In this document: piece by piece, positions 33,309-44,450 of the stretch
Layout: every line of letters begins with the position of its first letter
How positions within the stretch are numbered: position 1 is the stretch's first letter
Sequence record: MZ234012.1
Strand: one strand, 5' to 3'
Length of the DNA stretch: 44,450 nucleotides
Source: Escherichia phage vB_EcoP-101101UKE1
Notes under the pieces: generated by a model
Seen by the model: only the letters and a program-made list of their open reading frames with translations
Told to the model about the DNA's origin: nothing
The model's database searches: none
Program-made: the position numbers and the translations under genes

Positions 33309-33503
33309 ATGATTAACTCCGAACTGGTAGATAGTGGTGTGAAGCTTGCGCCACCTGCACTCGTATCAGGTGGGTACTTCCTCGGTATCAGTTGGGATAA
33401 TTGGGTGTTAATAGCAACATTCATTTATACCGTGTTGCAAATTGGGGACTGGTTTTATAATAAGTTCAAGATTTGGAGGGAGAAGCGTGAGCGTACACAA
33501 TAA
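33309..33503 (+). CDS. class II holin (T7 gp17.5-like)
   Basis: 64 aa. FIYTVLQIGDW resembles T7 gp17.5 IAYTVVQIG. RBS taaggagg. Confidence 0.65.
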   Translation: MINSELVDSGVKLAPPALVSGGYFLGISWDNWVLIATFIYTVLQIGDWFYNKFKIWREKRERTQ

Positions 33504-33786
33504 ACATGCAGCTACAGAGGATGAGGTTGGCATTCTGCATGGTGCTATTACCAAAATCTTCAATAAGAAAGCACAGGCAATACTGGACACTATAGAAGAA
33601 GACCCTGATGCAGCATTACATTTAGTGTCTGGTAAGGATATTGGTGCGATGTGTAAGTGGGTTCTTGATAACGGCATTACCGCCACACCTGCTGCACAGC
33701 AGGAAGAGTCCAAGTTATCTAAGCGCCTCAAGGCTATCCGAGAGGCATCCAGTGGCAAGATTATTCAGTTTACAAAAGAGGAGTGA
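33487..33786 (+). CDS. putative terminase small subunit (assigned by position)
   Basis: GTG start after RBS ggaggg, located between the holin and the HNH/large terminase genes as for T7 gene 18. No motif recognised. Confidence 0.4.
   Translation: MSVHNKHAATEDEVGILHGAITKIFNKKAQAILDTIEEDPDAALHLVSGKDIGAMCKWVLDNGITATPAAQQEESKLSKRLKAIREASSGKIIQFTKEE
33579..33600 (+). promoter_or_regulatory. phage RNAP promoter variant (AATACTGGACACTATAGAAGAA)
   Basis: Core ACTGGACACTATAGAAG is perfect. It lies inside the putative small terminase gene, upstream of the HNH and large terminase genes. Confidence 0.55.
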
Positions 33787-33787
33787 T

Positions 33788-34231
33788 ATGCATAGATGGT
33801 GTGAATCTCAAGGTTATACCATCTTACCTTCTGGTGTCATCCTTTCAAAGGGTGGCACCCCTCTCAAACCATTCAAGGCGGGTAGGGGTTATTTAGCAGT
33901 TAAAATTAAAAATAAAGAAGGTAGATGGCGTAATGTCTATGTTCATCAATTAGTGGCTTATAAGTATTTACCTAAAACTAATAATGAAGTAAACCACAAA
34001 GACGGCGATAAGCACAACAATGATGTTAGCAACTTGGAGTGGGTAACAAGAAGCGAGAATAACTATTTAAAATGCAATGGAAATGATAGGAGTACCTTAA
34101 ATAGCTATTTAGCAAGATTAAAAGATTGCTTCTTGCAAGGTAAGGGTGTAGCAGAAACCGCTAGACTTACTGGTAAAAGTGAACCAAGAGTTTCTTCTCT
34201 CTTTAAGGAGTGGCGAAATGGCAAAGGCTAG
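33788..34231 (+). CDS. HNH homing endonuclease
   Basis: HNH motif VNHKDGDKHNNDVSNLEWVTRSEN. AT-rich compared with its neighbours. Start ATG 33788 with RBS aagaggag; the track ORF opens at 33641. Confidence 0.8.
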   Translation: MHRWCESQGYTILPSGVILSKGGTPLKPFKAGRGYLAVKIKNKEGRWRNVYVHQLVAYKYLPKTNNEVNHKDGDKHNNDVSNLEWVTRSENNYLKCNGNDRSTLNSYLARLKDCFLQGKGVAETARLTGKSEPRVSSLFKEWRNGKG

Positions 34232-36116
34232 AGAATCACAGGCAGAGGCATTAAAGCGGTGGGAAAACCTTAAAGAACTACAAGACACTTTTAAATATAC
34301 AGCGGAAGGTTTGCTTCTCTTTGCAGATACAGTTATTCATAACTTAATTGCAGGCAACCCTCATCTGATTCGTATGCAGGCTGATATCTTGAAGTTCCTA
34401 TTTTACGGACACAAGTACCGCCTCATCGAAGCGCCTCGTGGTATCGCTAAGACAACACTATCAGCAATCTATACGGTATTCCGTATTATTCATGAACCGC
34501 ATAAGCGTATCATGGTTGTGTCCCAAAACGCCAAGCGAGCAGAGGAAATCGCAGGTTGGGTAGTTAAAATCTTCCGTGGCTTAGACTTTCTTGAGTTTAT
34601 GCTGCCGGATATCTACGCTGGGGACCGTGCATCCGTTAAGGCGTTTGAGATTCATTACACCCTACGTGGTAGTGATAAGTCTCCTTCTGTATCCTGTTAC
34701 TCAATCGAAGCAGGTATGCAGGGTGCTCGTGCTGATATTATTCTAGCGGATGACGTAGAGTCGATGCAGAATGCTCGTACGGCAGCGGGCCGTGCCTTGC
34801 TTGAGGAACTGACTAAGGAGTTTGAATCTATCAACCAGTTTGGGGATATCATTTACCTTGGTACACCTCAGAACGTAAACTCTATCTACAACAACCTACC
34901 TGCTCGTGGTTACTCTGTTCGTATCTGGACTGCGCGTTACCCTTCAGTAGAGCAAGAGCAATGTTATGGCGACTTCCTTGCACCTATGATTGTTCAAGAT
35001 ATGAAGGACAACCCAGCACTTCGCTCAGGGTACGGGTTGGATGGTAATAGTGGTGCACCTTGTGCCCCTGAAATGTATGATGATGAAGTCCTGATTGAGA
35101 AGGAAATCTCTCAGGGTGCTGCTAAGTTCCAGCTTCAGTTCATGCTTAACACTCGCATGATGGATGCTGACAGATACCCATTACGCCTGAACAATCTAAT
35201 CTTCACCTCGTTTGGTACAGAGGAAGTCCCTGTGATGCCTACGTGGAGTAATGATTCCATAAACATCATTGGTGATGCACCTAAGTATGGTAACAAGCCT
35301 ACGGATTTCATGTACAGACCTGTAGCTCGCCCATATGAATGGGGCGCTGTCTCCCGCAAGATTATGTATATTGACCCTGCGGGTGGTGGTAAGAACGGAG
35401 ATGAGACGGGTGTAGCCATCGTATTCCTGCACGGCACATTCATTTATGTGTATCAGTGCTTTGGTGTACCTGGCGGATACCGAGAGTCGTCCCTGAATCG
35501 CATTGTGCAAGCCGCAAAGCAGGCGGGTGTTAAAGAGGTATTCATTGAGAAGAACTTTGGTCATGGCGCGTTTGAGGCGGTAATTAAGCCGTACTTTGAA
35601 CGAGAGTGGCCTGTAACTCTGGAAGAGGATTACGCCACCGGACAGAAAGAGTTGCGTATCATTGAGACGCTGGAGCCGCTCATGGCAGCACATAGGCTTA
35701 TCTTCAATGCAGAGATGGTGAAGTCAGACTTTGAGTCGGTACAGCACTATCCGCTTGAACTACGCATGTCCTACAGTCTTTTCAATCAAATGTCGAACAT
35801 AACGATTGAGAAGAACAGCCTCCGGCACGATGACCGCCTAGACGCCCTGTATGGCGCTATACGGCAATTAACTTCTCAGATAGACTATGACGAGGTTACA
35901 CGGATTAATCGCCTCAGAGCGCAGGAGATGCGCGATTACATCCATGCTATGAATACACCTCATTTACGCAGGGCAATGCTATATGGAGATTACGGTACTG
36001 AGCGAAGAGTGACCAACACTTCCGTAGCGATGCAGCAGCGAGTTTACGGGCAGAACTACCGAAATAAATCGGCAAGCAGAAATACACTTTCTGCAAGGAT
36101 TTCAAGGACTTATTAA
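34218..36116 (+). CDS. terminase large subunit (T7 gp19-like)
   Basis: Walker A-like PRGIAKTT and Walker B-like ILADDVE. Probable start ATG 34218 (RBS aaggag); the track ORF opens at 34179. Confidence 0.9.
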   Translation: MAKARESQAEALKRWENLKELQDTFKYTAEGLLLFADTVIHNLIAGNPHLIRMQADILKFLFYGHKYRLIEAPRGIAKTTLSAIYTVFRIIHEPHKRIMVVSQNAKRAEEIAGWVVKIFRGLDFLEFMLPDIYAGDRASVKAFEIHYTLRGSDKSPSVSCYSIEAGMQGARADIILADDVESMQNARTAAGRALLEELTKEFESINQFGDIIYLGTPQNVNSIYNNLPARGYSVRIWTARYPSVEQEQCYGDFLAPMIVQDMKDNPALRSGYGLDGNSGAPCAPEMYDDEVLIEKEISQGAAKFQLQFMLNTRMMDADRYPLRLNNLIFTSFGTEEVPVMPTWSNDSINIIGDAPKYGNKPTDFMYRPVARPYEWGAVSRKIMYIDPAGGGKNGDETGVAIVFLHGTFIYVYQCFGVPGGYRESSLNRIVQAAKQAGVKEVFIEKNFGHGAFEAVIKPYFEREWPVTLEEDYATGQKELRIIETLEPLMAAHRLIFNAEMVKSDFESVQHYPLELRMSYSLFNQMSNITIEKNSLRHDDRLDALYGAIRQLTSQIDYDEVTRINRLRAQEMRDYIHAMNTPHLRRAMLYGDYGTERRVTNTSVAMQQRVYGQNYRNKSASRNTLSARISRTY

Positions 36117-37781: not shown

Positions 37782-37805
37782 ATTTACTGGACACTATAGA
37801 AGAGG
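37782..37805 (+). promoter_or_regulatory. phage RNAP promoter upstream of the tailspike genes (ATTTACTGGACACTATAGAAGAGG)
   Basis: Exact consensus. Confidence 0.8.
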
Positions 37806-37883
37806 TAAGATAGCGCCGTTCTTTTGAGCGGCCTATTACTAGCCAATCTTCATAGGGAGGGTTGGAAAGTAATAGGAGATAGC

Positions 37884-39782
37884 ATGGCTAAATTAACCAA
37901 ACCTAATACTGAAGGAATCTTGCATAAAGGACAATCTTTGTATGAGTACCTTGATGCGAGAGTTTTAACATCAAAGCCGTTTGGTGCTGTAGGTGACGCC
38001 GCTACTGATGATACGGAGGTTATAGCTGCTTCATTAAACTCTCAGAAAGCTGTCACAATCTCAGACGGTGTATTCTCTAGCTCTGGTATTAATAGTAATT
38101 ACTGTAACTTAGACGGTAGAGGTAGTGGGGTGCTAAGTCACCGTTCCAGTACAGGTAACTACTTAGTATTTAACAATCCACGTACAGGTCGCTTAAGTAA
38201 TATTACGGTAGAAAGTAATAAGGAGACTGATACAACTCAGGGACAGCAGGTATCTCTTGCGGGTGGAAGTGATGTTACTGTAAGTGACGTTAACTTCTCA
38301 AACGTTAAAGGTACTGGTTTCAGTTTAATCGCATACCCTAATGATGCGCCACCTGATGGACTTATGATTAAAGGCATTCGAGGTAGCTATTCCGGCTATG
38401 CTACTAATAAGGCAGCCGGATGCGTACTTGCTGACTCATCAGTTAACTCCCTCATAGATAACGTCATTGCTAAGAACTACCCTCAGTTCGGAGCAGTAGA
38501 GTTGAAAGGTACAGCCAGTTACAACATAGTCAGTAATGTTATAGGGACAGATTGCCAGCATGTAACTTACAACGGCACTGAAGGGCCAATAGCTCCTTCT
38601 AATAACCTTATCAAGGGGGTGATGGCTAATAACCCTAAGTATGCAGCGGTTGTTGCAGGCAAAGGAAGTACGAACTTGATCTCAGACGTGCTCGTAGGTT
38701 ACTCAACTTCTGATGCTAGGCAGGTTCATGGTGTTACCGTAGAAGGATCTGATAACGTCATAAATAATGTGCTTATGTCAGGATGTGATGGTACTAACTC
38801 TTTAGGACAAAGGCAGACTGCTACAATTGCACGCTTTATAGGTACAGCTAATAACAACTATGCGTCTGTATTTCCTAGCTACAGTGCTACAGGTGTTATT
38901 ACTTTCGAATCCGGCTCTACCCGTAACTTCGTAGAGGTAAAGCACCCTGGCAGGAGAAACGACCTTCTCAGTTCTGCTAGTACTATTGACGGTGCAGCTA
39001 CTATTGACGGCACTAATAATAGTAACGTAGTGCACGCACCTGCCTTAGGGCAGTACATAGGTAGTATGTCAGGTAGGTTCGAATGGCGGATTAAGTCCAT
39101 GTCACTCCCTTCAGGCGTTCTTACTTCTGCTGATAAGTACAGAATGCTTGGGGATGGTGCTGTATCATTAGCTTTAGGTGGGGGTACTTCTTCTCAAGTT
39201 CGCCTATTTACTTCTGATGGTACTTCTCGGACAGTGTCCCTCACCAACGGTAACGTGCGTCTTTCTACCAGTAGCACAGGCTATTTGCAGTTAGGTACTG
39301 ATGCAATGACCCCAGATAGTACTGGTACATACGCATTAGGTTCCGCCAGTCGAGCATGGTCTGGCGGTTTTACTCAAGCAGCATTCACTGTTACATCAGA
39401 TGCTCGGTGTAAAACAGAACCTCTTACTATCTCAGATGCCTTACTGGATGCTTGGTCTGAAGTTGACTTTGTGCAGTTTCAGTATTTGGATCGTGTTGAG
39501 GAGAAGGGTGCAGACTCAGCTAGATGGCACTTCGGTATCATCGCTCAGCGAGCTAAGGAGTCTTTCGAACGTCACGGTATAGATGCACATCGCTATGGCT
39601 TCTTGTGCTTCGACAGTTGGGATGATGTATACGAGGAAGATGCCAATGGCTCTCGTAAACTGATTACACCAGCAGGTTCCCGCTACGGTATTCGTTACGA
39701 GGAAGTGCTGATATTAGAGGCTGCGTTGATGCGGCGGACTATTAAGCGTATGCAGGAAGCACTAGCTTCCCTGCCTAAGTAA
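37884..39782 (+). CDS. tailspike 1: beta-helix depolymerase with C-terminal intramolecular chaperone (peptidase S74) domain
   Basis: N-terminal FGAVGDAATDDTEVIAA is pectate-lyase-like. C-terminal SDARCKTEP...WHFGIIAQRAKESFERHGIDAHRYGFLCFDSWDD matches the auto-cleaving chaperone domain of endosialidases, K5 lyase and the T5 L-shaped fiber. Start ATG 37884. Confidence 0.85.
   Translation: MAKLTKPNTEGILHKGQSLYEYLDARVLTSKPFGAVGDAATDDTEVIAASLNSQKAVTISDGVFSSSGINSNYCNLDGRGSGVLSHRSSTGNYLVFNNPRTGRLSNITVESNKETDTTQGQQVSLAGGSDVTVSDVNFSNVKGTGFSLIAYPNDAPPDGLMIKGIRGSYSGYATNKAAGCVLADSSVNSLIDNVIAKNYPQFGAVELKGTASYNIVSNVIGTDCQHVTYNGTEGPIAPSNNLIKGVMANNPKYAAVVAGKGSTNLISDVLVGYSTSDARQVHGVTVEGSDNVINNVLMSGCDGTNSLGQRQTATIARFIGTANNNYASVFPSYSATGVITFESGSTRNFVEVKHPGRRNDLLSSASTIDGAATIDGTNNSNVVHAPALGQYIGSMSGRFEWRIKSMSLPSGVLTSADKYRMLGDGAVSLALGGGTSSQVRLFTSDGTSRTVSLTNGNVRLSTSSTGYLQLGTDAMTPDSTGTYALGSASRAWSGGFTQAAFTVTSDARCKTEPLTISDALLDAWSEVDFVQFQYLDRVEEKGADSARWHFGIIAQRAKESFERHGIDAHRYGFLCFDSWDDVYEEDANGSRKLITPAGSRYGIRYEEVLILEAALMRRTIKRMQEALASLPK
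39406..39779 (+). other. intramolecular chaperone / peptidase S74 auto-processing domain within tailspike 1
   Basis: Begins at the conserved Ser of the SDARxK motif. Predicted self-cleavage immediately before this Ser. Confidence 0.7.
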
Positions 39783-39788
39783 GCAACA

Positions 39789-39812
39789 GGCAGTGCGTAA
39801 GCACTGCTTTTC
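39789..39812 (+). terminator. rho-independent terminator-like hairpin between the two tailspike genes
   Basis: gcagtgc-GTAA-gcactgc (7-bp perfect stem) followed by ttttc. Confidence 0.55.
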
Positions 39813-39867
39813 ACGCAACTTTTCTTAAAGGTTATCATGGTGGTAGCCTTTCAGAAAAGGAGGTTAC

Positions 39868-41580
39868 ATGCTTCAAAGATTAAGTGCTTACTTGGTGAAG
39901 TACAAGAGTAAACTAACAGGTACTATTGAGCGCCTGCTATCTGATAAACTATCGGATACTATAGATGTTGCGGATTTTGGAGTTAATCCCTCTTCTAATG
40001 ACAACAGGCAAGCCCTTCAAGCTGCATTTAATGCGGTCAGATTGCTAGGCGGTGGTACTGTATCAGTCACTAAGGCTGGCGAATATAAACTAAGTGGTAC
40101 TGTTGAGATATTTGCTAATACACACTTCAAGGTTGCTAAAGGTGTAACATTTGTACGTGACTACGAAACAGGAGATACGCTATTCAGATTATCACAAGGG
40201 CAAGCTAGTAATGTAACAGTCAGTGGAGGTGTCTATGAAGGCAATGGTCACACTAAAGGAGATACACCTTTTGTAGTATTTGCATCTACTAGTAATAATG
40301 ATTTGAAGTTTGAAGGCATAATAGTTAACAATGTAGTGGACTACCACGCCATAGATTTAGCAGATTGGAACAACGTAGTTATTCGTGATTGTAAATTCCT
40401 AGGGTTTAAGAATACAGGCAGTCGTAACTTCTCAGAGGCTATACAGTTAGACCCAGGACTTATTACAGTAGGTCGCTATGTGCAGTCTAGTGGTTTACTG
40501 GTAGAGAATTGCTATGCTGGCCCAAACCTTGATTCTGGATTTGGCGGGTATGGTGCTCTAGTAGGAAATCATGCATCAGCTTATGGTGTTCAAGATAACA
40601 ACATTAGAATCCTAAATTGCACTACAGATGGTGCGCTCTTTGCAGGTGTACGTGTATTTAACTGGAAAAACTGGATAGTACGTGGTTGCACATTTAGAAA
40701 TTCTAATGCAAGAGGTGTTCATGTTACACCTGTCTCCTCTCAAACTAAACCGCAAGGAACTCGACAAGGTAGTGTTGTAGATTGTACTTTTGATGGCGTA
40801 AGAACACCAGTGCTAATTGCTGCACCATCTTGGCCTTTTACCGATATTAGTGACATTTGGCATGACCATATTGAAATTTCTAATAATACTATGATCCTCA
40901 CAGAGGATGTATCCTATGGTGTAGATGCAAGGTGGTGTAAGAATTTAATTGTAAAGGGTAATACAGGCTCTGGTGGCTTAGGGTTAATCGGTTTACGCTT
41001 TGGGACAAAATACCACATAGAAGGTAATACTTGGGAAAACGGAAGAGGTAGTGGGATTTGGTTAGGTGAGTCTGATGCTACTACATTCATTGGTACTGGA
41101 TTATCGGGCGAAGGTATACTTAGTCGTAATATCCTCTCTAAATTAGGGCAATATGGTATTCATGTAAACTGCAAGGTTGGCGGTCTAGTGATTAAGGCTA
41201 ATAATATGAAGGAAGTATCTACAGCTGAAGCAGGTAGGCACTTCATTAGCATAGACACAGGAGCTAACAACATCCTAGTAGAAGGTAATATTGGAGTAGA
41301 TGGAGAAAGCCCTAACAAGCCAAGCCTTGGTATTCGTGTTACTTCTTCTTGTTCCAATATTAAACTCATTGGCAATGATTGCTATGGTACACAGGCGCCT
41401 CAGAATAACCAAGGAGTCGGTTCTAGTACGGTGATTGTTTATGGACTAAATGGCGATCCTACAACTTTAGGCGTAGGTGCACCTGTAGGCTCTTTAGCAA
41501 CTGATATCAATGGGTCTGGTGGTAGTACATTGTACGTTAAAGAATCTGGTACATCTGCTCAAGGTTGGGTTGCAAAGTAG
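39868..41580 (+). CDS. tailspike 2: pectate-lyase-like right-handed beta-helix protein
   Basis: RBS aaaggagg. DVADFGVNPSSNDNRQALQAAFNA is typical of pectate-lyase-superfamily tailspikes, and Gly/Asn/Val-rich repeats follow. Confidence 0.75.
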   Translation: MLQRLSAYLVKYKSKLTGTIERLLSDKLSDTIDVADFGVNPSSNDNRQALQAAFNAVRLLGGGTVSVTKAGEYKLSGTVEIFANTHFKVAKGVTFVRDYETGDTLFRLSQGQASNVTVSGGVYEGNGHTKGDTPFVVFASTSNNDLKFEGIIVNNVVDYHAIDLADWNNVVIRDCKFLGFKNTGSRNFSEAIQLDPGLITVGRYVQSSGLLVENCYAGPNLDSGFGGYGALVGNHASAYGVQDNNIRILNCTTDGALFAGVRVFNWKNWIVRGCTFRNSNARGVHVTPVSSQTKPQGTRQGSVVDCTFDGVRTPVLIAAPSWPFTDISDIWHDHIEISNNTMILTEDVSYGVDARWCKNLIVKGNTGSGGLGLIGLRFGTKYHIEGNTWENGRGSGIWLGESDATTFIGTGLSGEGILSRNILSKLGQYGIHVNCKVGGLVIKANNMKEVSTAEAGRHFISIDTGANNILVEGNIGVDGESPNKPSLGIRVTSSCSNIKLIGNDCYGTQAPQNNQGVGSSTVIVYGLNGDPTTLGVGAPVGSLATDINGSGGSTLYVKESGTSAQGWVAK

Positions 41581-41589
41581 TAGGATTGC

Positions 41590-41739
41590 ATGCCAATAAT
41601 CAAATCAGTTAAGCAAAGTGCTGTACGCCAGAACACAGAAGAGCTTATTCAATCAGGCCGTGACCCTAAGCAAGCTTATGCCATTGCCAAGGATGTACAA
41701 CGTCGTGCCTTGAAGAAACCTTCTGCATCTTCTGCGTAA
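41590..41739 (+). CDS. small basic protein (49 aa)
   Basis: ORF directly after tailspike 2 with a weak RBS. Confidence 0.3.
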   Translation: MPIIKSVKQSAVRQNTEELIQSGRDPKQAYAIAKDVQRRALKKPSASSA

Positions 41740-42045
41740 GCAGGTTAATATCTTAGTGTACACAAGGGCAGACCTAGGTTTGCTCTTAGTGTATTTACAA
41801 TGGAGGTCTTATGTATATACCTATGGAAGCAATAGTAGGTTGCCTGTGTTTGTTGGTAGGCTTCATTATAGGCTTAATAGCAAACCCTTAGTGTAATCCA
41901 AGGAGGTAACATGCAAGAAGAGAATTGGGATGTGTAATATTGGGTTTGGAGGAGGTTGAACCTTAGTCCTGTACAAGGATTAACCAAAGTCAAAATTTTG
42001 ATATATGCGTGTGTCAGTTCTCTCGCCCTCGCCCTCGCCGGGTTG

Positions 42046-42066
42046 CCCCCCCCCCCCCCCCCCCCC
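42046..42066. repeat. 21-nt poly(C) homopolymer
   Basis: Uninterrupted run of 21 C, preceded by (CGCCCT)x3 and followed by TATAGGG. Confidence 0.9.
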
Positions 42067-42326
42067 TATAGGGTGGCCTGAGGGAATCCGTCTTCGACGG
42101 GCAGGGCTGATGTACTCCTTGGATAGTACAAGGGAGGCGGAGGGAACGCCTAGGACGGCCTAGGGAATGGCTTAGTGGTGGACAAGGTGATTACCTTAGT
42201 GAAGCCTCTTAGTGCATTCCTGAGGCCATTCAGGGCGTTTATGAGGGATTGACAGGGTGAATGGGTGTGGGCTATCTGTTCGTTTCGTTCACTCCGCTTG
42301 CGCTCCGTTCACTCGCTCACGTGTAC

Positions 42327-42453
42327 CTTAGGTTATTACTTGATGGATAGCTTAGGTTAACCTTAGTGGAATGCCTTAGTTAAAGACTTAGTGCTTATCT
42401 TAGTAACAGCTTAGTAGTGTACCTTAGTTGGTCTTAGTGAATAGCCTTAGTGA
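42327..42453. repeat. array of about 10 CTTAGT short repeats with 10-13-bp spacing
   Basis: CTTAG occurs at 42327, 42351, 42362, 42375, 42387, 42399, 42410, 42423, 42433 and 42446. Further copies at 42171, 42196, 42208 and between 42590 and 42775. Confidence 0.85.
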
Positions 42454-42648
42454 TTGCACATGCAAGAATGTAAGATGCCAATAGGTCGCGGTCGGTAGAC
42501 CGCTAAAGAGAGAGAATAGTAATAAGATGCAGTAGGAGGAACACCAGAAACCTAGCCAACCTAGCCTATCCTAGCTCTGTATCTATTGCTTTTCCTTAGT
42601 CTAACATGTGAGACAACCTAGATTTATCTTAGTGATGATATCTTAGTG

Positions 42649-42677
42649 TTGACAAGGCCATCTCAATATAATACTAT
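42649..42677 (+). promoter_or_regulatory. candidate sigma70 early promoter (TTGACA-17-TACTAT)
   Basis: Perfect -35 hexamer, 17-bp spacer and a good -10, upstream of the first early gene. Confidence 0.55.
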
Positions 42678-42820
42678 TCATCACGTAGGCAGCACTGAGG
42701 TGCTTAGTAGCCAGCTAGTAAGGCATACGAAGAGACTAGCGCTTACATTGCTCTTTAACAATTTGCTTAGTGTAACCTATGTATGCCGTGGTCAATTACT
42801 TATTGAATGAGGAATTAACT

Positions 42821-43000
42821 ATGACATTAAACAACCGTGAACTGTCCGTTCTCTTCACTCTGTTGTGCTACATGATTCGTAACAACGAATTACTTACAGA
42901 CGATGAGTTAGCCTTGTATCACCGCTTTCTTAACGAAGGTTGGACCGATACAGTTAATCAATACCGTAACATGATAGATGAGTTGAGGGAGGGTAAATAA
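42821..43000 (+). CDS. early hypothetical protein (59 aa)
   Basis: RBS gagga 8 nt before ATG 42821; the track ORF opens at 42779. Confidence 0.4.
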   Translation: MTLNNRELSVLFTLLCYMIRNNELLTDDELALYHRFLNEGWTDTVNQYRNMIDELREGK

Positions 43001-43224
43001 TGTATCAGCATGAGGTTTTCTTTGAGTCAGCTAGTGAAGCTATCCGCTTCCTTGAAGATATGCTACAAGCTGGCGTAGGTGTTGATGTACATCACTTCCT
43101 ACTAGATTACGACACTGAATATCACCGAGTTACCTTAGTATCTGAGTATGACAACCAAGTCATTACTGAGTACCTAGGCAGTGAAGATTACGATTACGAT
43201 GAAGTAATCACGACAAATCTCTAA
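43000..43224 (+). CDS. early acidic protein (74 aa, Asp/Glu/Tyr-rich)
   Basis: TAATG-coupled to the preceding gene, RBS gagggagg. Strong net negative charge. Confidence 0.4.
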   Translation: MYQHEVFFESASEAIRFLEDMLQAGVGVDVHHFLLDYDTEYHRVTLVSEYDNQVITEYLGSEDYDYDEVITTNL

Positions 43225-43232
43225 ATTAACTG

Positions 43233-43261
43233 TTGACAGCCACGGCATACAAGGTTACATT
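43233..43261 (+). promoter_or_regulatory. candidate sigma70 early promoter (TTGACA-17-TACATT)
   Basis: Perfect -35 hexamer with a 17-bp spacer. Confidence 0.45.
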
Positions 43262-43353
43262 AAGCATCAAGACGGCGACGTCTTTAAACATCCCGCTCTT
43301 TAACAATACGGTTTGTGTCTTGATAGGCTAACTAACTAACTAAGGTAATTATC

Positions 43354-43464
43354 ATGAAAGGTTTAATTTGTGTAGAACGTATGGTCAATGGTAAACTTGA
43401 AATATTACCACTGGAAAACCAATCTAGCTTCAAAGAGTGGTATGGCTGTTTCTCACTGATTTAA
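43354..43464 (+). CDS. early small protein (36 aa)
   Basis: ORF after the TAACTAACTAA stop cluster with a weak RBS. Confidence 0.3.
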   Translation: MKGLICVERMVNGKLEILPLENQSSFKEWYGCFSLI

Positions 43465-43614
43465 GGTAGAGGCTGGCACTAGTCAGCCTATCAAGGCGCA
43501 AACCAAGCTCTTTAACAATTTGGATAAAGCTTCTTAGTCTGGATAGGTTAAACCTAGGAGATTCTCTTGAGTCTCCTATAATGTAACCTAACTAACTAAA
43601 TGAGGATTAATAAC

Positions 43615-43968
43615 ATGGCTATGTCTAATATGACTTACTCTCAGGTTTACAACACCGCTCATGCTGCATTAGTTGAACGTATCTGGAATGATGATATTGA
43701 TTGTATCGATAACGCACATGATGCAATCCATGATGCGGCGGATAGCGCTGTACCAATCTATTATGCTGACATCTTCTCCGTGATGGCGAGTGAAGGTATT
43801 GATCACTTCTTCGAAGACTCCGGCCTGATGCCAGATACTAAGGATGTAACGGTCGTACTACAAGCCCGTATTTATGAACAACTCACCATTGATTTATGGG
43901 AACGTGTTCAAGATATGATTGTTGAGTACACCACTTACGCTGAGTATTCAGAAGAAGAGGAAGAATAA
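43615..43968 (+). CDS. ocr: Ocr-like DNA-mimic anti-restriction protein (T7 gene 0.3 homolog)
   Basis: MAMSNMTY..., [43 protein letters not shown] and [15 protein letters not shown] closely match my recollection of T7 Ocr. 117 aa with an acidic C-terminus. RBS gagga 7 nt before ATG 43615. Confidence 0.8.
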
Positions 43969-43969
43969 G

Positions 43970-44083
43970 ATGGAAAAGCTATACAACTTCATCTTTTCAG
44001 ACGGTGTAACCCTGAAGTGTTCCCTACGATTCGCACAAATTCGTGAGGAAGTACTAGGCACTACATACAAACTATTTAGCTGA
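43970..44083 (+). CDS. early small protein (37 aa)
   Basis: Begins 2 nt after the ocr stop, in the slot of T7 gene 0.4. No sequence similarity recognised. Confidence 0.3.
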   Translation: MEKLYNFIFSDGVTLKCSLRFAQIREEVLGTTYKLFS

Positions 44084-44098
44084 CACTATAAGAGAAGG
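44074..44098 (+). promoter_or_regulatory. degenerate phage-promoter-like element (ATTTAGCTGACACTATAAGAGAAGG)
   Basis: Strong resemblance to the consensus but with TATAAGAG in place of TATAGAAG. Confidence 0.3.
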
Positions 44099-44159
44099 CT
44101 TAACAAGGCGTTGCTACGGTAGCGCCTGATTAAACTTTCACTTACTAGGAGTTAAGACT

Positions 44160-44387
44160 ATGGATTTAGATAGCATCATTATGGCATTTGCTCTTATTGG
44201 CTTAAGCTGGTGCTCCTATCACCTTTACCGTGAGTTCTTATTTGATAAAGCTAAACGCAAACTAAGAAAGGAAGGCGGCAATTACCTTTGTGTAAGAGGT
44301 GGGCTTGTAGAATACATTGCACCTAACGGCACGGAATGCGCCATTAGCAAAGATGCATTTATAGAAACGTGGCATTACATCAAGTAA
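44160..44387 (+). CDS. early membrane protein (75 aa)
   Basis: RBS aggag. N-terminal TM helix IIMAFALIGLSWCSY. Confidence 0.4.
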   Translation: MDLDSIIMAFALIGLSWCSYHLYREFLFDKAKRKLRKEGGNYLCVRGGLVEYIAPNGTECAISKDAFIETWHYIK

Positions 44388-44421
44388 CTAGCCTATAGTC
44401 TACCTGAGTGGGCTATGTGAT

Positions 44422-44446
44422 ATTTACTTACACTATATAAGGTGAC
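44422..44446 (+). promoter_or_regulatory. degenerate phage-promoter-like element (ATTTACTTACACTATATAAGGTGAC)
   Basis: Partial match to the consensus, immediately upstream (across the circular junction) of the ORF at 1. Confidence 0.25.
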
Positions 44447-44450
44447 TATT

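Follow-up and report, generated by a model that had tools for sequence, protein, structure and literature searches.

A probable T7-like concatemer junction with an expanded poly(C) tract in the K1-5-like Escherichia phage vB_EcoP-101101UKE1

At which positions does the genome of Escherichia phage vB_EcoP-101101UKE1 physically end, and how is the run of 21 C's near the end of its sequence record to be understood? The record (MZ234012.1) comprises 44,450 nucleotides (nt), referred to here in their entirety as ‘the window’, and contains at about 42 kb a non-coding region marked by this poly(C) tract and by an array of short CTTAGT repeats. A preliminary description of the window, prepared from its letters without database searches, placed the physical ends and a direct terminal repeat (DTR) in this region. 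Here, we outline evidence that the region is very probably the concatemer junction, i.e. the terminal region, of a K1-5-like Vectrevirus (Autographiviridae, Molineuxvirinae), collapsed and rotated in the assembly, and we propose for it a T7-like mechanism. The architecture is already known, being that of the K1-5/SP6 terminal repeat with a T7-like concatemer junction; its sole unusual element is the poly(C) expansion.

Window positions 41500-44450 and 1-1500 were read directly. Sequence comparison provided the position and extent of the DTR equivalent, showed that boundary block, pause core and repeats are conserved, and revealed the strand bias and phasing of the repeats and the length polymorphism of the C tract. 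A megablast search with positions 41900-42900 as the query matched 104 phage records, mostly of Vectrevirus or K1-5-like coliphages, the remainder being SP6-like Salmonella phages and related phages of Klebsiella, Citrobacter, Proteus and Raoultella. The terminal repeats of K1-5, K1E and SP6 are reportedly treated in work by Scholl et al. and by Dobbins et al., both of 2004; we computed exact DTRs from both record ends for five phages, namely K1-5 (234 base pairs [bp]), SP6 (174 bp), K1E (288 bp), Raoultella phage Ro_P3a (283 bp) and Mt1B1_P10 (267 bp). All five begin inside a (TC)n-CTCGCC motif and finish at ...GGGCTA directly before TCTGTT, which is window position 42274, and their starts correspond, in window numbering, to 42019 (SP6), 42021 (K1E), 42022 (Ro_P3a and Mt1B1_P10) and 42023 (K1-5). 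The linear K1-5 record opens TCGCCCTCGCCCTCGCCGGGTTGTCCCCATAGGG (TCGCCCTCGCC...), aligned to window 42023, and its exact repeat finishes ...GGGCGTGGGCTA, aligned to window 42274. Further records begin at the same boundaries, those of VEc3, R4596, EEc2 and EEc4 at the equivalent of 42021/42022 and that of AAPEc6 at the equivalent of 42275, and SHAK7163 carries two tandem DTR copies, in which ...GGGCTA is joined directly to CTCGCC.... The placement of the physical ends and DTR in this region is thus supported by homology to five exact-DTR records, by the starts of other records and by a tandem junction (Table 1).

The predicted DTR has a G+C content of 60.5 per cent, compared with 45 per cent for the window, and occurs in the window once, as its own only match. 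The window starts with the gene upstream of the SP6/K1-5-type RNA polymerase gene and ends with small early genes. A single DTR copy together with a start at an internal gene indicates that the assembly was circularly collapsed and rotated, so that the rotation supposed in the preliminary description is borne out. The loss or collapse of DTRs in short-read assemblies of T7-like phages has been documented (PMC10438801). Additionally, short DTRs have been reported for a Vectrevirus by PhageTermVirome (PMC13507304) and demonstrated for an SP6-like phage by Bal31 digestion and run-off sequencing (PMC4837284). The SHAK7163 record (OR594179.1, vB_EcoM_SHAK7163) is labelled circular, is classed in Studiervirinae/Kayfunavirus and bears a myovirus-style name, while its terminal region is Vectrevirus-like; its tandem DTRs are probably linear ends that were joined, and the labelling of the record is probably wrong.

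Table 1. Coordinates of features in and around the terminal region of the window (a slash within a sequence marks a DTR boundary)
Feature	Position	Strand	Remarks
Terminase small subunit gene	33442-33786	+	PHROG E 3e-25
Terminase large subunit gene	34179-36116	+	PHROG E 2e-238
Four CTTAGT copies in the right-end unique region, left of the DTR	41752-41967	+	Starts 41752, 41785, 41887, 41962
Conserved junction block	41982-42073	+	Straddles the left DTR boundary; AACCAAAGTCAAAATTTTGATAT..GCGTGTGT..(TC)n/CTCGCCCTCGCCCTCGCCGGGTTG-Cn-ATAGGG
Predicted DTR, single collapsed copy (252-256 bp)	42019-42274		Left end 42019-42023, right end 42274
(CTCGCC)x3	42022-42039	+	Extreme left end of the DTR; conserved in all relatives
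Poly(C)21	42046-42066	+	Expanded C arm of the terminal C-run/ATA/G-run inverted repeat
Palindrome CCCTATAGGG	42064-42073		Perfect; last three C's plus TATAGGG
Three CTTAGTG copies inside the DTR	42171-42213	+	Starts 42171, 42195, 42208; conserved in relatives
TTGACA (-35-like) inside the DTR	42250-42255	+	Nearly all relatives read TTGACAGGGTG; (C)TATCTG follows 17-18 bp downstream
TATCTGTT, putative class II phage RNA polymerase pause/termination core HATCTGTT	42273-42280	+	Straddles the right DTR boundary
Spacer between pause core and array	42281-42323	+	C/T-rich; short direct repeats CG(T/C)T(T/C)CGTTCACTC; length varies among relatives
CTTAGK array, two CTTAGG and eight CTTAGT head-to-tail	42327-42451	+	~12-bp spacing
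Hairpin 1	42453-42476	+	Three covarying pairs; ATTGCACATGCAAGCATGTAAGAT type
Hairpin 2, GCGGTC-GGTA-GACCGC	42488-42503	+	Invariant in all relatives
Five further CTTAGT copies	42595-42771	+	Starts 42595, 42628, 42642, 42703, 42766
Sigma70-type early promoter TTGACA-17-TACTAT	42649-42677	+	Conserved in K1-5
Second sigma70-type promoter TTGACA-17-TACATT	43233-43261	+	
Ocr (T7 gp0.3) homologue, early gene	43615-43968	+	PF08684, E 2.2e-43

The left boundary of the DTR lies within the most conserved sequence of the region. In a 22-sequence alignment, ~41982-42073 is near-invariant, reading AACCAAAGTCAAAATTTTGAT...GCGTGTGT.../CTCGCCCTCGCCCTCGCCGGGTTG-Cn-ATAGGG, and the flanks to its left and right are mosaic or unrelated between subgroups; by BLAST, >100 records match this block even where the remaining sequence has diverged. 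Conservation that runs across the repeat boundary makes sense only on a concatemer and therefore fits a recognition and cut site for formation of the left end, which we infer the block to be. The repeat at the extreme left of the DTR had been described in advance as (CGCCCT)x3; in that register only 2.7 copies are present, but the same letters hold three exact copies when read as (CTCGCC)x3.

The right boundary is marked by a different element. ATCTGTT is the conserved core of the class II sequence-specific signals of T7-type RNA polymerases; it works in the non-template strand and requires A, C or T directly before it (PMC11347151; bioRxiv 10.1101/2021.01.11.426313); in T7 and T3, the paused polymerase has been linked to terminase (PMC3276506). 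The plus strand of the window has a single ATCTGTT, at the edge of the DTR, and the minus strand has three, with ~3.1 expected per strand. Exactly one copy stands at the right edge of the DTR in 17 of the 17 relatives whose fetched sequence reaches that edge, and its distance from the left end, 172-294 bp, follows the length of the DTR. In the window, K1-5, SP6 and K1E, the last base of the DTR is the first of the core; in T7, the core begins one base later, immediately after the DTR. By analogy, TATCTGTT is a putative class II pause signal. According to a preprint, the class II site of the T7 concatemer junction (CJ) can also serve, depending on context, as an E. coli promoter (bioRxiv 10.64898/2026.02.12.705533). 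In the window, the TTGACA at 42250-42255 and the (C)TATCTG at the edge of the DTR might form a minor host promoter. The sequence downstream of the core in the window, CGTTTCGTT, has six T's in nine positions and no uninterrupted T run; the T7 CJ likewise lacks one.

The concatemer junction of T7 is said to have been the subject of work by Dunn and Studier in 1983; the T7 coordinates given here were taken from NC_001604, in which both ends were checked. The T7 repeat, of 160 bp, starts with TCTC, contains CCTAAAG at 17, 41 and 60 and CCCCCATAGGGGG at 26-38, and is followed immediately by ATCTGTT at 161-167 and by a same-strand CCTAAAG array at 175-332, with a mean spacing of 12.8 over the units at 175-239 when the degenerate CCTAACG at 201 is counted. 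The preliminary description, which had noted both CCCCCATAGGGGG near the left end of T7 and short CCTAAAG arrays at its terminal repeat, was correct on both counts, as the arrays lie in and beside that repeat. The window has the same elements in the same order and at the same spacing: a TCTC left end, an inverted repeat from about 25 bp in (~25-55 in the window, 26-38 in T7), three short repeats inside the DTR, ATCTGTT at the right edge of the DTR to within 1 nt, a same-strand array at 12-13-bp spacing, and then sigma70 early promoters and the ocr gene. Even the CTTAGT copies at 41752-41967 have a T7 counterpart, in CCTAAAG at 39671 and 39700, upstream of its right repeat. The two phages differ in that there is no alignable DNA similarity beyond short motifs; the unit of the window is (C)CTTAGT(G) rather than CCTAAAG, i.e. 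an analogue and not a sequence homologue; and T7 has phiOL and phiOR, whereas the junction of the window is without flanking phage promoters. For T7, pausing that is enhanced by lysozyme has also been described.

Compared with K1-5, K1E and SP6, the window has homologous DNA, the same left-end motif, the same right boundary (...GGGCTA/TCTGTT), the same CTTAGT units at the same spacing, and the same downstream hairpins, early promoters and gene order. It differs from them in the length of the DTR (252-256 bp vs 234, 288 and 174 bp, respectively), in a DTR interior that is mosaic, and in reading C21-TATAGGG where they read TCCCC-ATAGGG or CCCC-ATATGGGG. The pac site of phage P1 offers a more distant parallel, in that multiple short oriented repeats, the hexanucleotides TGATCA/G, flank the region cleaved by terminase; P1 belongs to an unrelated phage family and differs in its headful packaging, in the regulation of its repeats by Dam methylation and in its unrelated repeat sequence.

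It is at C21-TATAGGG that the window departs from what its relatives would predict. The tract is exactly 21 nt long and is followed by TATAGGG at 42067-42073, as the preliminary description had it. It is the sole C run of >=5 and the sole homopolymer of >=7 in the 44,450 bases, in which ~7e-11 C runs of >=21 would be expected. It sits 24-27 bp inside the left end of the DTR, and both of its flanks are colinear with the relatives. The palindrome CCCTATAGGG, formed with its last three C's, has counterparts in K1-5 (CCCCATAGGG, 24-33), SP6 (29-38), K1E (CCCCATATGGGG) and T7 and KP34 (CCCCCATAGGGGG, 26-38). At the homologous site, the relatives read mostly GGGTTG-TCCCC-ATAGGG, or C5; the closest relative, T205P5, has C6, the longest normal run. 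Long-C records were picked out by BLAST with short queries spanning the tract: both DTR copies of SHAK7163 contain C12, the run of Klebsiella phage Kpp-61 is T+C10, and the Vectrevirus NIC06P3 reads GGGTTG-C15...C22-ATATGGG, with ~850 bp of high-G+C DNA and homopolymer junk between the two runs. Run lengths at this site are 4, 5, 6, 10, 12, 15-22 and 21, a length polymorphism among relatives that extends beyond the ~8 nt sufficient for slippage in a contingency-type tract. The NIC06P3 insert (OZ035778.1, ~962-1836) encodes a DUF3159 protein (Pfam E 1e-50). It lies exactly at the DTR poly(C) site and almost certainly represents contaminating DNA that the assembler spliced in at the homopolymer, giving a chimera.

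A comparable run is found in a second subfamily. In Drulisvirus (KP34-like phages of Slopekvirinae), KP34 carries CCCCCATAGGGGG at DTR positions 26-38, the same sequence at the same position as in T7, and G-run lengths in the DTR are 5 in KP34 and Dlv622, 12 in KPR2, 16 in SDFMU_Pkc and 26 in Klebsiella phage KXP, the last of which was matched by the same short query spanning the poly(C) tract. The Drulisvirus case differs in that the run of variable length consists of G's at DTR 58-62, lies ~20 bp further in than the palindrome and is not an arm of it, and in that the DTR edge of KP34 lacks ATCTGTT. KP34 also has CCTAGTG/CTTAGTG-like units to the right of its terminal repeat.

The preliminary description had left two explanations of the tract side by side, that it is variable in length and that it arose by assembly or end repair at the true terminus. 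The first is supported by the comparison between genomes (C4-6 vs C10, C12 and C15-22 at the same site). End repair or tailing was rejected, and is unlikely, since a tract that is internal and has colinear homologous sequence on either side is neither an end-join nor a tailing artefact. The recurrence of expansions at the same site in records of unrelated accession series and the parallel in a second subfamily favour a real tract, and we think it probable, from these comparisons, that poly(C)21 is a slippage-prone, hypermutable tract, tolerated in non-coding DNA, that expands the usual C4-6 arm.

The alternative to a real tract is a sequencing or assembly artefact in which low-complexity reads, a polishing error or mis-assembly in the collapsed DTR turned a true C5-6, like that of the closest relatives, into C21. 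We hold this to be the less likely explanation, although several observations speak for it. Of the ~60-70 related records that allowed the run length to be read or inferred, only three depart from 4-6 C's; the evident chimeric join of NIC06P3 at the same site implies that assemblies do fail here; artefacts in or near Autographiviridae DTRs are documented (PMC10438801); and slippage does not readily account for the extra T that follows the run. Searches of IMG/VR and of metagenomes yielded no further Vectrevirus with >=8 C's: IMG/VR returned unrelated matches only for GCCGGGTTG+C8 and one unrelated contig for C8+ATAGGGTG, and a metagenome scan for long-C junctions gave 87 matches, none with Vectrevirus context. 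On the other side, the sequence is correct and colinear on both flanks of a tract that lies 24-27 bp inside the end, and four records, from different countries and hosts where the records state them and from unrelated accession series, are expanded at exactly the same site (C10, C12, C15-22 and C21). Drulisvirus DTRs behave alike at their G-run (5, 5, 12, 16 and 26), and the absence of any other homopolymer of >=7 in the window indicates that the assembly is not generally noisy. Moreover, the GGGTTG-C15 junction of NIC06P3 is incompatible with 3' poly-G dark-cycle tails, which suggests a real long C run in the template.

The CTTAGT units form the second conspicuous feature of the region. On both strands of the whole window, CTTAGT occurs 55 times, vs 30.5 +/- 5.9 in shuffles; in the non-coding part at 41740-42830, it occurs 20 times on the plus strand and 0 times on the minus strand, its density elsewhere in the window predicting ~0.44 per strand (Poisson P ~2e-26). 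In the relatives, the first <=900 bp contain 3-17 copies on the plus strand and 0 on the minus strand (8-17 where >=587 nt are available), and an alignment of 18 genomes that reaches from the pause core to the hairpins shows invariant CTTAGT units separated by spacers of 4-7 bp with freely varying sequence. Within the array, CTTAGG starts at 42327 and 42351 and CTTAGT at 42362, 42375, 42387, 42399, 42410, 42423, 42433 and 42446, and the exact copies are spaced by 13, 12, 12, 11, 13, 10 and 13 bp (mean 12.0). The earlier count of about ten CTTAGT was a fair one, there being eight exact copies and two CTTAGG; the phasing had been given as roughly one unit per helical turn, and 12 bp somewhat exceeds one turn of B-DNA. 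The array begins 53 bp to the right of the DTR and stands outside it, with further copies inside the DTR and in the right-end unique region. Our guess is that the CTTAGT units may be binding sites for the small terminase subunit or another packaging factor.

It may be instead that the units serve early events at the leading (left) end and not packaging, e.g. by binding a host or phage factor with an influence on genome entry or on E. coli RNA polymerase promoters, or by marking a replication origin. The copies run past the array to 42766, other copies lie upstream of early genes, and the copy at 42642 is part of a CTTAGTG that lies directly against the -35 element of the first early promoter (CTTAGTGTTGACA, 42642-42654); TAAAG-type units of T7 likewise pass through its A1 promoter region, and every copy in the window is on the transcribed-sense strand. 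However, the DTR itself and the right-end unique region (41752-41967) also contain copies, the densest and best-phased array adjoins the edge of the DTR and not the promoters, and the junction has units to its left and to its right, as a signal that is read on concatemers should. We consider an early role rather doubtful and prefer a packaging role for the units.

Several points weigh against the interpretation as a whole. The termini of this genome are placed by homology alone, and the T-rich tract needed for class II termination is only partial (CGTTTCGTT). No phage promoters equivalent to phiOL or phiOR of T7 were found adjoining the DTR: the canonical phage promoter (ATTTACyGGACACTATAGAAG) occurs for the last time ahead of the right end at 37782 and for the first time past the left end at 44074, so that late transcription would have to cross hairpins at ~41764-41861. 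The extra T (C21-TATAGGG vs Cn-ATAGGG) is unexplained by simple slippage; the core of the inverted repeat varies among relatives, being ATA, ATAT or TATA. We know of no protein that binds CTTAGT, or CCTAAAG in T7, and the extension of CTTAGT copies to the early promoter region fits a role in transcription or entry as well as one in packaging. That the region is no physical terminus at all, the phage being circularly permuted (headful) or having its ends elsewhere and the motifs belonging to an ordinary intergenic regulatory region, is highly improbable: the assembly does appear circular, with its single DTR copy, but there is nucleotide homology to both ends of five linear exact-DTR records (the ground for rejecting headful or permuted packaging), a number of independent records begin or end at the same boundaries, the terminal architecture of the T7 type is present in full, and short DTRs are reported for the genus (PMC13507304).

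No credible open reading frame (ORF) is present at 41740-42820; those that run across it, e.g. 42005-42163, in which the poly(C) tract is read as a proline run, were rejected as coding because K1-5 annotates nothing before the homologue of the ORF at 42821 and because the frame hinges on a variable homopolymer. An Rfam scan of 41500-44450 (E up to 1) gave chance-level microRNA and small nucleolar RNA matches only and no known RNA family. The two hairpins stand directly to the right of the array, in the place that phiOL and the secondary origin occupy in T7. Hairpin 1 exists in the relatives in two compensated versions, ACATGC/GCATGT and ATAGCT/AGCTAT, the window copy having one broken pair (A at 42467); this segment looks like a phage promoter in its K1E/SP6 variant alone, and a covarying hairpin describes it better.

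The preliminary description had sigma70-like promoters and early genes start just downstream, and this holds. Matches to sigma70-like promoters do not exceed those in shuffled sequence (5 vs 6.4), and the two plus-strand sites in Table 1 were accepted only because of their perfect TTGACA, their 17-bp spacing and their conservation in K1-5; the Ocr homologue confirms that the early, left-end region starts here. Three copies of GCTCTTTAACAA, at 42750, 43295 and 43507, each lie upstream of an early gene, and T7 carries GCTCTTTAACAATCTGG at 814, upstream of gene 0.3, in what we take to be its R0.3 RNase III processing region; by this analogy, the early transcript is likely to be processed by RNase III at the copies in the window. 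One copy of a 23-nt direct repeat (87 per cent identical; ATATCTTAGTGT(A/T)(C/G)ACAAGG(G/C)CA) lies at 41748-41770, in the right-end region beyond the last small gene, and the other lies at 42638-42660, in the -35 region of the first early promoter.

Farther to the left, the small and large terminase subunits are the enzymes expected to act on the junction. An HNH endonuclease ORF (33641-34231; PHROG E 2e-30) lies between their genes and overlaps both, and is probably a homing endonuclease insertion. Like phages of the dual-spike K1-5 group, the window has two consecutive tail-spike genes (37824-41580; 652 and 570 amino acids) ahead of the right end; the second gene matches a PHROG family other than that of the first.

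A scheme for the use of these elements can be proposed by analogy with T7, its first three steps being inferred from T7 biology and the binding role in the fourth being a guess. First, replication would produce head-to-tail concatemers with one DTR per junction. Second, rightward late transcription would enter the junction, where the phage RNA polymerase would pause at the only plus-strand HATCTGTT, at the right edge of the DTR, and the paused complex would help to bring in terminase. Third, terminase would cut at ...GGGCTA (42274) to form the right end and in (TC)n/CTCGCC (42019-42023; here the slash separates two motifs) to form the left end, with the conserved block of ~90 bp that spans the left boundary and contains the C-run/ATA/G-run inverted repeat as its recognition element, and the DTR would be duplicated through strand-displacement synthesis. 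Fourth, the one-strand CTTAGT(G) units, phased at ~12 bp, would provide repeated sites for a packaging or accessory protein, for which the small terminase subunit is our best guess, and would be the functional analogue of the CCTAAAG arrays of T7.

If the junction is read correctly, the virion genome should be ~44.70 kb long with the repeat at both ends, its proper first base being window position 42019-42023 and its proper last base being 42274 after the second DTR copy. The poly(C) tract is flagged as a site that needs verification before deposition or engineering, and the combination of invariant CTTAGT motifs with variable spacers offers a clean target for binding and mutational tests. The layout of the T7 junction, i.e. 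a terminal inverted repeat, a pause core on the edge of the repeat and phased short repeats on one strand, has been kept in the SP6/K1-5 lineage in spite of there being no alignable DNA, and this retention speaks for a function of each element. Three subfamilies, represented by T7, KP34 and SP6/K1-5, have conserved the terminal inverted repeat CCCC(C)ATAGGGG(G) at ~+24 to +38, counted from the left end, and the run that expands is the C arm of this repeat in Vectrevirus (4 to 21-22 nt) and the G-run 20 bp further in in Drulisvirus (5-26 nt). The searchable literature held nothing specific on poly-C or homopolymer tracts in the DTRs of Autographiviridae or Vectrevirus, and the recurrent expansion of homopolymers in the DTRs of two subfamilies is possibly a small, undescribed observation. 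Whether G/C homopolymers inside Autographiviridae DTRs are, in general, real and recurrently expanding hypervariable tracts beside a conserved terminal inverted repeat is, in our judgement, evenly balanced; if so, the expansions would be a footprint of the copying or annealing of the repeat in each generation, and they might tune end processing, packaging or ejection.

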